26,551 bases of DNA, from positions 1-26,551 of the forward strand of contig CANLTW010000017.1 in the NCBI GenBank assembly GCA_947494155.1, in the 5' to 3' direction. A program made the position numbers and the translations under genes. Under the pieces are notes generated by a model, which saw nothing but the letters and a program-made list of their open reading frames with translations, was not told the origin of the DNA and searched no databases. Source of the stretch: Chlamydiota bacterium. Lineage in GTDB: Bacteria; Chlamydiota; Chlamydiia; Chlamydiales; RGXB01. The stretch's first letter is position 1; every line of letters begins with the position of its first letter. Shown here piece after piece: positions 21,938 through 26,551 of the stretch.

Positions 21938-22450
21938 TTATTTACATTCATTGTAGGGGACAGGGGAGGTAGTAGGGGGAAGAGGGGTCTCTGTATACAA
22001 AACTTTAACCTCCATCATCGATTCGGCAAAAACAACCTTTTTCCCATCAATCTCCATTAGGTACAAAGTCGTTTTTGGGCTCAAAAGCCGTTTTTCTAAA
22101 ATTTGCAGAGAATGAGATTTCATTCCAAATGTATGCCTACTGTGAGACATGCGTCGTAGAAACCAAATCGTCAAGAGGATAAGAGTGACAAAGCCGAACA
22201 GGGATAAAAGGGTCTTCAGTATGGCGTTTTGAAAATTTTTATTTTGTGTTTGAATTTCCTGACTGTCCTGATTTTGATCCTCTTTTTCCGACTCCTGTGT
22301 TTTTTTCACCTCCTGAGCGGGAGCGGTTTTATCCGGCTCTACCACCACAATCGTTTCGTTAAGGGTAGCAATAGAGTTTTGTCCTAAGCTTGTATTTTCT
22401 GCAAAAGCCAAAGAGCTGAAAAAAACAAGGCATATTAAGTAACATCTCAT
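21938..22450 (-). CDS. fliO: FliO/MopB family membrane protein
   Basis: ATG at 22450 with a GGAG RBS and signal peptide (MRCYLICLVFFSSLAFA). TM LLSLFGFVTLILLTIWFLRR followed by the FliO-type LQILEKRLLSPKTTLYLMEIDGKKVV. Confidence 0.82.
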   Translation of the reverse strand: MRCYLICLVFFSSLAFAENTSLGQNSIATLNETIVVVEPDKTAPAQEVKKTQESEKEDQNQDSQEIQTQNKNFQNAILKTLLSLFGFVTLILLTIWFLRRMSHSRHTFGMKSHSLQILEKRLLSPKTTLYLMEIDGKKVVFAESMMEVKVLYTETPLPPTTSPVPYNECK

Positions 22451-22758
22451 AGCTGCTCCCCAAAAAATAGAAAAGACGATACGAAAACCTATAGCAGAAA
22501 AGCTTTTAAACCAACAGATGAAAAAAACGAGTTTTGGTCCGTTTTGCATTTCATGGAGAGGGGAGCTCCAAACGCCACTATTTTCCCCTACGAGAGCAAT
22601 CCTGCTCTATCTTTTGATGAAAAAACTCCTCAACGGACAACATCTTCTAGGTTTTTTGTTGTCTAAAGAGGTGTCTAACTTACTAAAAGAAAAAGGTTAA
22701 TCATCTTAGATGTACAAAAAAAACCATTGATTATATCTATAAATCAAAAGGGAAAGGC

Positions 22759-22878
22759 ATGAAAAAAAAGACAAGTACTAGTAAGAAAGCTTTAAATAAA
22801 AAAGTAGCCAAAGGAAAGAAATCACCAGTCAAAGGGGGGGTTACAGAGGAACCCGTCCCTGCTATACCGATCAATTAA
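22759..22878 (+). CDS. Small Lys-rich-leader/GG peptide P1 (39 aa): MKKKTSTSKKALNKKVAKGKKSPVKGG-VTEEPVPAIPIN
   Basis: Hand-translated. GGAAAGG upstream of the ATG; shares a 41-bp leader block with P2. Confidence 0.7.
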   Translation: MKKKTSTSKKALNKKVAKGKKSPVKGGVTEEPVPAIPIN

Positions 22879-22968
22879 CAAAAACCTAAATAAAACGAAG
22901 AGGACAAATGAAGAAGCAACCAAAGGCAAAAGTAGCCAAAGGAAAGAAATCACCAGTCAAAGGGGGGG
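22800..22968 (+). repeat. 41-bp exact direct repeat (22800-22840 and 22928-22968) encoding KVAKGKKSPVKGG
   Basis: AAAAGTAGCCAAAGGAAAGAAATCACCAGTCAAAGGGGGGG occurs twice; the sequences diverge after the G run. Confidence 0.92.
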
Positions 22969-23120
22969 GGGAGACAATCAAAGCAACTAGCGGGCAAACT
23001 TCAAATATGGATCCAAATTGTGGAATACAAAAGGTCCGCGAATATTAAAACGAAAAAGATAGCCATAATCTATTGACAAAACGAAGAGGACAAATGAAGA
23101 AGCAACCAAAGGCAAAAGTA
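22892..23120 (+). repeat. 43-bp exact direct repeat (22892-22934 and 23078-23120) covering the RBS and MKKQPKAKV
   Basis: AAAACGAAGAGGACAAATGAAGAAGCAACCAAAGGCAAAAGTA occurs twice. Confidence 0.92.
22908..23048 (+). CDS. Small Lys-rich-leader/GG peptide P2 (46 aa): MKKQPKAKVAKGKKSPVKGGG-ETIKATSGQTSNMDPNCGIQKVREY
   Basis: Hand-translated. GAGG RBS; leader blocks shared with P1 and P3. Confidence 0.78.
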   Translation: MKKQPKAKVAKGKKSPVKGGGETIKATSGQTSNMDPNCGIQKVREY

Positions 23121-23252
23121 CCCAAAAGAAAGAAAACTACAAAGAAAAAGATTGCTGGGGGGGGGGCGTATGGTGTTGATACAAGTTATCCAAAGTGTAT
23201 AAAACAAGAATGTGTCGGCAATCCCAGCAAATCTTTTAGAAATCTAAACTAG
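23094..23252 (+). CDS. Small Lys-rich-leader/GG peptide P3 (52 aa): MKKQPKAKVPKRKKTTKKKIAGGG-AYGVDTSYPKCIKQECVGNPSKSFRNLN
   Basis: Hand-translated. Same RBS block as P2, two Cys in the core. Its TAG overlaps the fabI TAG in a CTAG palindrome at 23249-23252. Confidence 0.78.
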   Translation: MKKQPKAKVPKRKKTTKKKIAGGGAYGVDTSYPKCIKQECVGNPSKSFRNLN

Positions 23253-24172
23253 CCTCTTGACAAGACGAGCGCCTCTTCTTTTTGGATCACTTTTTGTGTA
23301 GGTCTCCCCATCACGCCTAAGCCGTGATCGACAAACAGTACCTGCCCTGTAATCGCTTTTCCTAGAGGGGAGGCCAAAAAGAGCATTGTGTTGGCGACGT
23401 CTTCTGCTTCCAAATCTCTTTGAATAGGAGAGTTATGAAATGAGTACTCGATCATTGAATCAATCATACCAATAGCACGTGCAGCTCTAGAGGCCAACGG
23501 CCCTGCAGAAATGGCGTTTACGCGGATCATTTTTTCTTGGCCCAGTTCGTAGGCGAGATAGCGCACATCGGCTTCTAAAGCGGCTTTAGCGGAAGACATA
23601 CCCCCTCCATAACCAGGGATCACCTGATCGGCAGCGCGATAGGTAAGCGTTAGGCAGGATCCGTTTGGCTCCATAAGATTTTTGAAATGGGAACAGAGGC
23701 TAACGAAAGAGTAGCTAGAGGCGCTTATTGCGTGTAAATAGCCCTCTCTGGAGGTCATAGACAAGGGGTTTTTGATCTCTTTGGCATTTGCAATTGCATG
23801 AATTACAATATCCACTTTTTTAAAATCTTGGGCAACAGCAGATACAAAGCCGCTAATCGAAAAGTCTTGGAGTCCTTTATAGCGTTTATTTTCTTTGACT
23901 TCAAAAGGGACCGCGTCAAGGGTGTCGTATAGTGCATCTAATGGATAGATGGCATCAAAACTAAGCTCTTCACCATTTTTAAGCCTTCTGGATTCACTAA
24001 ATTTTTCATTTACCAGGATTTGTTCTAAAATTCCGAGCAAGGGGGGCCAGGTGCCTGCGATTACTTTCGCTCCAAGATTTTTGAAGGCCTTAGCAATAGC
24101 CCAGGCAAATCCCTGGTCATCGCCAATACCGGCAATCACAACAACCTTATCTTTTAAGTCCCATGGATCCAT
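23249..24172 (-). CDS. fabI: Enoyl-[acyl-carrier-protein] reductase (NADH), chlamydial/plant-type
   Basis: AGIGDDQGFAWAIAK, GTWPP, YPLDA, NKRY insert, TSREGYLHAISASSYS, catalytic YGGGMSSAKAALE and ISAGPLASRAA. Confidence 0.97.
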   Translation of the reverse strand: MDPWDLKDKVVVIAGIGDDQGFAWAIAKAFKNLGAKVIAGTWPPLLGILEQILVNEKFSESRRLKNGEELSFDAIYPLDALYDTLDAVPFEVKENKRYKGLQDFSISGFVSAVAQDFKKVDIVIHAIANAKEIKNPLSMTSREGYLHAISASSYSFVSLCSHFKNLMEPNGSCLTLTYRAADQVIPGYGGGMSSAKAALEADVRYLAYELGQEKMIRVNAISAGPLASRAARAIGMIDSMIEYSFHNSPIQRDLEAEDVANTMLFLASPLGKAITGQVLFVDHGLGVMGRPTQKVIQKEEALVLSRG

Positions 24173-24400: not shown

Positions 24401-24547
24401 ATGAAAAAAAAACAAACACCAAAAAAGAAAGCTGTAAAAAAGAAAAAAAATACTAAAGGTGGAGAGTGTGTTCAATCTGGTTCTTTTTGGGGGCAATGTA
24501 AAAACGATGGACCTGATGATTTTTGGAGAACCAATTTAATCAAATAG
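24401..24547 (+). CDS. Small Lys-rich-leader/GG peptide P4 (48 aa): MKKKQTPKKKAVKKKKNTKGG-ECVQSGSFWGQCKNDGPDDFWRTNLIK
   Basis: Hand-translated. GGGA upstream; 11 Lys in the first 19 aa, KGG hinge, core with 2 Cys and 2 Trp. Confidence 0.75.
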   Translation: MKKKQTPKKKAVKKKKNTKGGECVQSGSFWGQCKNDGPDDFWRTNLIK

Positions 24548-24644: not shown

Positions 24645-25865
24645 ATGCGACACAAAAATGCCTTAATCCTCAAAGCCTTTGAAAGGCACTACCAAGAGGA
24701 GACAGGGTTTATCCATTTTGGGGTAGTAGCTCCTATTTTGGAAAACGCCCTATTTGCTTTGGCCCTTTTTAGAAAAAAAGAGCAAAAAACTATGCTGGAG
24801 GGAAAGGTGCTTCTATTGCGTTTGCTCTCCTATCAAAGCTCATCTGGTCTATTTCCCGACGCAGTCCATCTACTGGATCATGGCCATTTTTCCTGGAAAA
24901 AGAATCTCTACCTTGCTGCCGTTTTTACCCATCTTCTTAGAGAATTTGACCGGGTGATTGATAAGGTGTCGAAGGAAAAGATCCACCGCTGCTACACTTT
25001 TCTGATCGACGGATTAAAAAAGCTGGAATTGGGCGGAGCCCTTTTATTTTTGCGCTCTCTCCTTTTAGAAGAAGACCCTTTTCCTCTGGCCCCGTTAGAA
25101 TCCCAAGAAGAGGTGGAGATTTTTGTTGTCGGTTATGCCATAGCGCCTGAATCGCAACGACTTAAATTTGAGGAAATCCTTTCTTGGTACGTACTCAAAG
25201 ATGCCCCTTTTTATCAGGGCCCTTTTGAAGGGGTCAAGCAGTACAAGGGTAGGCTATTAAAATCTTTGATAGAAATTTCTCTAACTGTCGAAGAGGAGCT
25301 GAATGAGGAGGAGGCGATATTCGATAGGGTGTGGATGGAATCGGTTTTGGCTCCAGATCTTTCGCATATTAAAGGTCAGGCATTTTGGGTTCGCCACAAG
25401 GATTTAAGGGAGAAGGGGGATCTTTATGCTCTGGCTTTTTTGGATTTAAAACAGGGGCTTACAGCTGCTTTGTATCTTCCCCAAAACACCTTTTTTGATC
25501 CAAAAACATCGATTTACACTTTTTCACTTGAGGGTTTTTATGAGGAGGATACTCATGAAATTAGCCTTTACATCCCTAAATCCCCCTCTATTGAAGTCCA
25601 TGTTGATCAGGTAAAATCTTCGATTTTTCGAGAAAACGAGTGTGTAATGATTGATACAGAAGGTCAAACCATCCCCCTAATGTTTCGCATTGTTGAAGGG
25701 GATGGGAAGTTTATAGGGCATATAAGTTTGGATTCCAGACCCAATGAAATGGAAAAAGGGGGAATTTACGACAGAAAAATCTCGATTCGAACAATCGAAA
25801 GATCTTTGAGTTGCAAAATAGAGCTTTTTATTGGTTGGAATCAAGAGACCCTCAACTCTCTTTGA
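24645..25865 (+). CDS. Hypothetical protein (N-terminal helical region, C-terminal beta-rich region)
   Basis: 406-aa ORF with ATG start. No motif I can assign with confidence. Confidence 0.75.
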   Translation: MRHKNALILKAFERHYQEETGFIHFGVVAPILENALFALALFRKKEQKTMLEGKVLLLRLLSYQSSSGLFPDAVHLLDHGHFSWKKNLYLAAVFTHLLREFDRVIDKVSKEKIHRCYTFLIDGLKKLELGGALLFLRSLLLEEDPFPLAPLESQEEVEIFVVGYAIAPESQRLKFEEILSWYVLKDAPFYQGPFEGVKQYKGRLLKSLIEISLTVEEELNEEEAIFDRVWMESVLAPDLSHIKGQAFWVRHKDLREKGDLYALAFLDLKQGLTAALYLPQNTFFDPKTSIYTFSLEGFYEEDTHEISLYIPKSPSIEVHVDQVKSSIFRENECVMIDTEGQTIPLMFRIVEGDGKFIGHISLDSRPNEMEKGGIYDRKISIRTIERSLSCKIELFIGWNQETLNSL

Positions 25866-25914: not shown

Positions 25915-26046
25915 TTAATCATGTCCACAAACTTTTATGTCACCTTTTTGGGGGATACTAATCCATGACCCTTCCCCCCCCCCGAATTTTTTAATATTTT
26001 TTTTGTTTTTAGCCTTACTTTTTTTAGTTTCTGCATTCTTTTTCAT
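25915..26046 (-). CDS. Small Lys-rich-leader/GG peptide P5 (43 aa): MKKNAETKKSKAKNKKNIKKFGGG-EGSWISIPQKGDIKVCGHD
   Basis: Hand-translated on the minus strand. AGGGGA RBS upstream; same leader/GGG/core layout. Confidence 0.75.
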   Translation of the reverse strand: MKKNAETKKSKAKNKKNIKKFGGGEGSWISIPQKGDIKVCGHD

Positions 26047-26374: not shown

Positions 26375-26551
26375 TTGCCAACCAACAGGTTAGATCGACA
26401 TAGCGGGGTTATTTTTCGGAGTCCCTCTTCATTAACCCTTTAAACCCATAAATAAACGAAACAGTGTCGACTCCCTAAAAAAAATAAGCTCCCCATTCAG
26501 CGCAACTTGTTCATTATCAACAAGCTATTTTCTCTTACCCCCCCCCTTTTT

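Follow-up and report, generated by a model that had tools for sequence, protein, structure and literature searches.

The classical double-glycine (GG) leader forms an amphipathic helix with conserved hydrophobic positions. We investigated how far this and related leader systems resemble a tandem array of three small open reading frames (ORFs), P1, P2 and P3, on a 26,551-nucleotide (nt) stretch of DNA (hereafter the window) from a Chlamydiota bacterium (GenBank assembly GCA_947494155.1, contig CANLTW010000017.1, forward strand). The window comprises the entire contig C17 of a 1.41-Mb genome in 24 contigs (G000; 97.6% complete), and its gene content, with components of type III secretion and with Opp binding proteins, fits the chlamydial label. 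We consider P1 to P3 to be precursors of exported peptides that carry a new, cationic double-glycine leader and are handled by NHLP-type exporters, a reading to which we assign a rough probability of 55%.

The closest described systems are the expansions of Nif11- and NHLP-type precursors, including the prochlorosins. The parts of Haft et al. 2010 (PMC2887384) that were consulted describe an export cassette modelled by TIGR03794, TIGR03796 and TIGR03797, a leader conservation that is driven by the transporter, and NHLP and Nif11 leaders with an acidic, Leu-rich motif before the GG. Set against those parts of the source, the family to which P1 to P3 belong is alike in its many scattered or tandem genes, its conserved GG leader with hypervariable cores, the presence of the same three-gene cassette and the LanM-type enzyme near one cassette. 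It differs in having a Lys-rich leader of 20-27 amino acids (aa) rather than a domain of 60-80 aa, in a LanM-like protein that lacks the cyclase half, and in its host, a chlamydia with a 1.4-Mb genome. With the class II bacteriocins, class II microcins and competence pheromones, which the C39 domains of AMS and PCAT transporters process (ComA, PCAT1, LahT150), it shares a short GG leader (15-30 aa and closing in Gly-Gly, or Gly-Ala/Ser, in that class; the leaders here fall within this range), a Cys-His-Asp C39 triad and small cores that often contain a Cys pair, whereas the classical hydrophobic leader positions are mostly absent, the bacteriocin-signal model TIGR01847 matches no family member and finds nothing over its cut-off in the genome, and no immunity gene was identified. 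The GG-motif proteins of Synechococcus elongatus, which need an exporter of the PCAT type (a C39-peptidase ATP-binding cassette (ABC) transporter) for biofilm control (PMC4997328), are similar, as far as the consulted part of that paper goes, in being several small, non-antibiotic proteins, and differ in leader type, organism and gene number. GG-leader peptides with PCAT export, and prochlorosin-like expansions of them, are therefore a known kind of system, of which the present variant is absent from the libraries and papers searched. No chlamydial double-glycine peptides or lysine-rich leaders were described in the literature that our search covered, which lies outside subscription journals and supplements.

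We confirmed the three tandem small ORFs, which an earlier note on this DNA had proposed, on the plus strand. P1 (22759-22878; 39 aa) consists of a Lys-rich leader (22759-22839) ending in Gly-Gly and a 12-aa core without Cys, and has a purine run resembling a Shine-Dalgarno (SD) site 5-12 nt upstream. P2 (22908-23048; 46 aa) has a leader at 22908-22970, ending in Gly-Gly-Gly, and a 25-aa core with one Cys. P3 (ATG at 23094, running to 23252; 52 aa) has a leader at 23094-23165, likewise ending in Gly-Gly-Gly, and a 28-aa core with two Cys; its stop overlaps that of the convergent fabI. Two minus-strand genes flank the array (region 22700-23260), a FliO-like gene (21938-22549) on one side and fabI (23249-24172) on the other.

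The leaders of the array are built from exact repeats. A 43-nt block at 22892-22934, covering the ribosome-binding region and first nine codons of P2, recurs in the same role for P3 at 23078-23120, and a 41-nt block at 22800-22840, the 3' half of the P1 leader, recurs as the 3' half of the P2 leader at 22928-22968; all four copies are on the plus strand, both pairs are 100% identical, and neither block reaches beyond the G run that precedes the core. The first of these opens a 58-nt stretch of 97% identity (22892-22949 versus 23078-23135), with the first mismatch past 43 nt. The two blocks overlap by 7 nt within P2, indicating that the P2 leader is a mosaic of the 5' end of P3 and the 3' end of P1, and the P1/P2 identity ends inside the G run. 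The possibility that such repeats were produced by assembly can be dismissed. In the run that was probably the source, each repeat is a unitig of its own (41 nt at a depth of 20.9 and 43 nt at 26.9, where the flanks have approximately 14-17), as sequence in two copies should be, and all junction unitigs of the array exist. In addition, a separate contig of 131,919 nt records a near-identical P2 (P0012) with the same mosaic leader, so that the array is real. A protein identical to P3 is also recorded (P0002), and a 77%-identical relative of P3 is contained in P0011.

We additionally identified a recombinant of the array in another lake population. Parts of the stretch are present in 20 run rows from 17 studies, every one of them labelled as a freshwater or lake-water metagenome (the habitat is known from these run labels only). 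In run X3, from another lake, a 3190-nt contig joins position 22799 to 22928 across the 41 shared letters, leaving a strain with a two-gene array whose first gene combines the start of the P1 leader with the P2 core; a matching hybrid protein of 53 aa (P0013) occurs on three contigs. The join reflects deletion between direct repeats or the reverse insertion, deletion being the single-step reading, and the leader repeats do drive gene fusion or loss. Approximately 1.7 kb beyond 24200 and near the fifth family member of the window, the same X3 contig repeats 26 nt of the P3 leader's 3' end exactly on the minus strand, which points to gene conversion between loci. Recent leader duplication or gene conversion, as the earlier note had suggested from the exact blocks, thus stands, with the X3 join and P0013 as evidence from outside the window. 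In run X2, positions 23110-23258 are not covered at 88% likeness or more, and the 27-nt loose end that precedes 23259 does not match the window; this end might belong to a different P3 core, while the uncovered part is no evidence.

For the cores, complete replacement had been proposed, with no recognisable similarity between the three. This holds for P1, as the local alignment scores of its core DNA with those of P2 and P3 were reached by 482 and 480 of 500 shuffles, respectively, and is slightly too strong for P2 and P3, whose cores score 12 against 7.6 +/- 1.3 in shuffles, a score that four of 500 shuffles reach. Their similarity consists of an 11-nt stretch in the same frame, read as x-P-x-C in both peptides. 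This weak in-frame patch argues for fast divergence rather than pure replacement between P2 and P3, and the fast diversification offered as the other option gains from the orthologues described below, whose cores diverge fast and keep their Cys positions.

P1 to P3 belong to a family that extends through the genome. We scanned for ORFs of 27-75 aa that start M-(K/Q/R)-K and in which a stretch with a Lys/Arg content of 33% or more and no more than 20% hydrophobic residues ends in GG, and found 16 in the genome, none in the reversed genome and none in each of five local shuffles. A hidden Markov model of the leader added two further members, one of them truncated by a stop, giving a total of 16 to 18 genes, of which five are inside the window; tandem or divergent pairs were also found on contigs C10 and C13. 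In the leader alignment M1, K3 and both glycines are invariant, with Gly-Gly in all 16 members. The Lys-rich leaders are followed by hypervariable tails, often with Cys: by our own count, Cys is present in 11 of 16 cores and doubled in six of those 11, and most cores contain both Ser/Thr and Cys. A purine run of SD type precedes 15 of 17 members. Neither P1 to P3 in Pfam nor the five window members in NCBIfam matched any family. A radical SAM gene lies on contig C18 (18733-19203), approximately 1.7 kb from the family member C18-20919.

ORFs that are short, low-complexity, rich in homopolymers and without a Pfam or NCBIfam match could be spurious, if A-rich and G-rich intergenic repeats were simply being read as Lys and Gly. 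The null counts in the reversed and shuffled genomes speak against this, however, as do the SD-like site and ATG of most members, the writing of the glycines in mixed codons, and orthologues with in-frame insertions or deletions (indels) and conserved Cys, and we regard this explanation as hardly credible. P1 to P3 are real protein-coding genes of a peptide family restricted to one genus.

We identified relatives of the family in a search of 5.8 billion clusters (E up to 0.1; 2471 candidates), which yielded 14 small proteins, all unnamed or "hypothetical", including nine non-identical relatives of members. Among these, P0014 has an identical 20-aa leader and, by eye, about one third of its core identical, with the terminal Cys kept; a 48-aa acidic core is conserved in P0007 and P0009; and P0001, P0003 and P0004 are three variants of the peptide found in G006, another genome of the genus. 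The member on contig C7 has an orthologue in a further relative, G002, from which, counted by eye, it differs at 5 of 66 nt in the leader before the glycines, at 8 of 42 nt in the core and at approximately 9% of the flanks; a hairpin and a T run follow the stop in this pair. Judged from this one pair, cores seem to change faster than their surroundings. The G002 orthologue writes its glycines as GGT GGG GGT, interrupting the G run with a 3-nt in-frame gain, and keeps the glycines and both Cys. The mixed Gly codons and the in-frame indel with retained Cys indicate that selection acts on the protein.

Long G runs in coding sequence are known from other systems, as poly-G/C contingency loci in Neisseria, Haemophilus and Campylobacter and as poly-G tracts in chlamydial pmp genes. 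In the array, a G7 run at 22834-22840 (P1) and G10 runs at 22962-22971 (P2) and 23157-23166 (P3) mark the end of the leaders. Ten is the greatest run length in the genome, and three of the seven runs of this length are within the window; G or C runs of at least 8 number 89 in the genome. The run is mainly the codons for the Gly-Gly(-Gly) of the leader/core boundary. No Gly codon is used more often than GGG (34.5%), and among the 1284 Gly-Gly pairs of 594 long ORFs, 45.6% take the form GGGGGN. Mixed codons encode Gly-Gly in 6 of the 16 members and, as noted, in the G002 orthologue, so that the conserved feature is the leader/core boundary and not a DNA homopolymer. The G tract is thus not needed as a recombination breakpoint, the role in which it had previously been cast.

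These runs, G7 to G10 in length, could also act by slippage in replication, switching the core frame on and off or between cores as the main logic of the locus. The length of the G10 runs and their concentration in the window would suit such a switch, as would G9 in place of G10 in P3 in one contig of an RNA library, a member in the related genome G001 whose leader frame lies one G away from that of a core with Cys, and P1 together with three short-core members that have longer cores in another frame (in P1, one additional G opens a longer, Cys-containing core). Yet the codon usage just described accounts for G-rich glycine pairs generally, mixed codons stand in paralogues, the orthologue breaks the run in frame, and the DNA contigs of runs X1 and X3 (contigs, not reads) show no change of run length, keep P2 and P3 in frame and vary by substitution. 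The resemblance to contingency loci is accordingly limited to long G runs near the 5' end of coding sequence; here the run encodes a conserved Gly-Gly(-Gly), mixed codons replace it in paralogues and an orthologue, and the frame is kept in population DNA contigs. We consider contingency switching distinctly unlikely as the main logic.

Several G000 contigs end at G/C runs, for instance C24, whose right end and the left end of C2 overlap in a G9 run, and some assembly breaks may be homopolymer-related. We considered such ends as further family leaders and rejected this, as what adjoins them is for the most part unlike a family leader. In run X15, a loose end of 27 poly-C letters before 22975 looks like a sequencing artefact and was set aside.

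We identified two C39-peptidase ABC transporters in the genome (PF03412, 127.8 and 115.9 bits), each in a cassette of adjoining genes for an HlyD protein, the PCAT and a second ABC protein. The best NCBIfam models for these genes are the NHLP bacteriocin export trio: the PCATs score 833 and 808 bits against TIGR03796 (cut-off 853), the second ABC proteins 691 and 700 bits against TIGR03797 (cut-off 709), and the HlyD proteins 145 and 164 bits against TIGR03794 (cut-off 156), where one passes. The best solved match of the C39 domain is LahT150 (6mpz, E 1.7e-42), and the Cys, His, Asp triad is invariant in 14 chlamydial homologues (alignment A2). We found no Nif11 (TIGR03798) or NHLP (TIGR03793) leader over cut-off in G000, the sole NHLP-leader match being of 12.9 bits inside a 314-aa ORF, and the exporters appear to have no other candidate substrate in the genome.

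Two members adjoin such cassettes, one of the 16 in G000 and one ORF in G001. On contig C8 of G000, the order is member C8-54941, two small ORFs (for which CMD/AhpD-like is a lead only), a LanM N-terminal-like gene, HlyD, PCAT and second ABC; the cluster corresponds to L005, 3483-12942, is flanked by a TolC-like gene and an AcrB gene, and is a candidate for modifying and exporting peptides. In G001, an ORF with a Lys/Arg-rich leader and GG stands directly upstream of the orthologous HlyD, PCAT and second ABC genes. Charge complementarity was also considered as a sign of pairing and discarded: the C39 domain of the C8 cluster has a net charge of -10 and is tied as the most acidic of 37 such domains, and three other lineages reach -9 or -10, so that the property is not diagnostic.

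The LanM-like protein of the C8 cluster raises the question of whether these are strict class II lanthipeptides, in which, in the manner of prochlorosins, Ser/Thr would be dehydrated and thioether rings made by a LanM ahead of export. The protein scores 208 bits against TIGR03897 and 176 bits against PF13575, has LicM2 and CylM among its solved-structure matches, and keeps, by eye, what we take to be the kinase-like active-site motifs in the aligned stretch; the Ser/Thr and Cys of most cores would furnish substrates. However, at 535 aa it spans only the N-terminal part of the model (best stretch at positions 10-271 of 932) and falls below the 304-bit cut-off, no LanC-like domain (PF05147) was matched anywhere in the 97.6%-complete genome, the member beside the enzyme has no Cys in its core, and the related genomes G001, G002, G003 and G005 are without the enzyme. 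Strict lanthipeptides are in our view very improbable. The looser, prochlorosin-like logic that the earlier note had recognised in the array is borne out by a genome-wide family with conserved leader and variable cores, by NHLP-type peptidase-ABC exporters and by a LanM-like enzyme; its parallel with polymorphic toxins found no support, there being neither a toxin domain nor a large carrier protein.

We investigated the distribution of the family and its exporters within the genus. G000 combines two PCATs, one LanM-N-like protein and at least 16 members; G006 has two PCATs, one LanM-N-like protein and at least one member; and G002 has at least one PCAT, no LanM-N-like protein and at least one member. 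In G001, we found two PCATs, no LanM-N-like protein and one member, by eye. G003 has one PCAT, no LanM-N-like protein and no detected member; G005 has no PCAT, no LanM-N-like protein and no detected member; and G004, which is 72% complete, has no PCAT and no detected member. A profile search of 41 genomes with leader alignment A1 matched only G000, G006 and G002; it recovered 6 of the 16 members of G000 itself, so that its misses mean little. The joint presence of members and PCATs in G000, G006 and G002, and the absence of both from G005, are suggestive only, in kin that are not independent and with a search that is insensitive.

Across the phylum, 52 of the 300 chlamydial genomes that were sampled have a PCAT and 11 have Nif11-type leaders. 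Only G089 and G261 have both, leaving 50 of the 52 PCAT genomes without a Nif11-type precursor at the thresholds used. In these two genomes (L090 and L094, respectively), tandem genes for Nif11-type leader peptides lie a few kb from a C39 ABC gene, indicating that classical precursors do exist elsewhere in the phylum. The surroundings of 30 chlamydial PCAT genes (1.5 kb to either side, windows that end within the cassette) gave one loose pattern match and no clear member.

Together, these observations are most likely joined as follows. A precursor would be recognised by one or both of the NHLP-type systems, each comprising an HlyD adaptor, a C39-peptidase ABC protein, a second ABC protein and a TolC-like outer-membrane protein encoded nearby; the C39 domain would cut after Gly-Gly, and the core would be exported, some cores perhaps forming a disulfide or being modified by the LanM N-terminal-like kinase/dehydratase beside one cassette. 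Selection by the shared exporters and gene conversion may keep the leaders alike and so provide portable homology, through which recombination between leaders would fuse, delete or duplicate genes while the cores diverge quickly. The family and its conservation as protein, the exporters with their intact catalytic triad, the two members beside cassettes and the recombinant array of another population are observed; how precursors are recognised, cut, exported and perhaps modified, and what the peptides act on, is inferred.

Several points weigh against this. The leader charge is opposite to that of NHLP and Nif11 leaders, which is both the main cause for caution and the main novelty: the leaders here are without the acidic, Leu-rich pattern before the GG, and an aliphatic residue stands at -4 in only about half of them, judged by eye. 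The link between leader and C39 domain is putative, and a complex prediction of the C39 domain with P3 scored 0.01 against a mark of 0.32, which, in a run without controls, speaks neither for nor against binding. P1 to P3 do not adjoin an exporter, the P1 core has 12 aa and no Cys, and the frame as assembled leaves four members with a very short core. The P3-like leader within P0011 ends in G-K-G, not G-G-G. G003 has a PCAT and no detected member, and G001 had none by the insensitive profile search, its single member having been found by eye. The sole RNA evidence is the one RNA-library contig, from a library that possibly contains DNA. Finally, a genome without a LanC-like cyclase is unlikely to make a true lanthipeptide.

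Some of the same points would suit peptides that are never cleaved, in which the Lys-rich N-terminus would itself be active, as a cationic module for host targeting or for binding to membranes or nucleic acids, Gly-Gly would be a flexible hinge, and any export would follow another route such as the type III secretion encoded in the window. The leaders are extremely basic and without the usual amphipathic pattern, type III secretion genes flank the array, P1 to P3 are far from the PCAT cassettes, and one relative has G-K-G for G-G-G. A mere hinge sits poorly, however, with a Gly-Gly that is invariant in 16 of 16 members, with a conserved N-terminus and variable C-terminus in the pattern of leader and core, with the two members that adjoin C39 exporters, and with exporters that have no other candidate substrate in the genome. 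We judge uncleaved peptides to be unlikely, although less so than the other alternatives considered above.

If P1 to P3 are indeed leader-bearing precursors handled by the NHLP-type exporters, C39 transporters accept a leader type that current miners of bacteriocins and of peptides synthesised ribosomally and modified after translation (RiPPs) do not model, and the chlamydial NHLP-type cassettes gain a first candidate set of substrates. The locus would then be a compact natural example of leader-guided core shuffling between lake populations, and would pose the question of what use a 1.4-Mb bacterium, presumed intracellular, has for approximately 18 secreted peptides. A possible but doubtful extension is that an intracellular chlamydia maintains about 18 secreted micro-peptides as a recombining arsenal behind this unrecognised, strongly cationic double-glycine leader, which would serve both as an address tag for orphan NHLP-type exporters and as portable homology for swapping, fusing and losing cores between loci and strains, giving a type I-secreted repertoire directed at hosts or competitors in an arms race.

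Two further members lie in the window beyond fabI. The fourth (24401-24547, plus strand; 48 aa; recorded as P0008) writes its Gly-Gly as GGT GGA and has two Cys in its core, and the fifth (25915-26046, minus strand; 43 aa; recorded as P0006) has a G10 run (C10 on the plus strand at 25974-25983) and one core Cys. At the contig end, a G9 run on the minus strand (26538-26546), preceded on that strand by Lys codons, may be the end of a further leader that the contig end has severed. A promoter consensus scan gave no sites and a terminator scan one, both at chance level, and the only two Rfam matches were likewise at chance level.

Finally, the earlier note had proposed comparing the interval between fliO and fabI across relatives for copy number and core turnover. 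Of six same-genus genomes with a fabI match, five loci were read, and the interval is conserved in none of them: another gene lies at the 3' end of fabI, there is no family ORF, and only fabI aligns as DNA, so that copy number is comparable only among close strains. A 406-aa ORF in the window (24645-25865, plus strand), without a Pfam family, is a homologue of the 405-413-aa gene that stands tail-to-tail with fabI in G001, G003, G004 and G005 of the same genus. In G000 it stands head-to-head with fabI, and family peptide genes occur at all three junctions of the rearranged block. In G001 and G003 (L017 and L018), three to four tandem copies of approximately 45 nt from the 3' end of the 413-aa gene are found in the approximately 200 nt before the fabI stop, between that gene and fabI. 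In G006 (L015, approximately 570-700), the DNA immediately 3' of fabI holds a small Lys-rich ORF and after it, in another frame, a short peptide with two Cys, which may represent a different leader type at the place that P1 to P3 occupy in G000.

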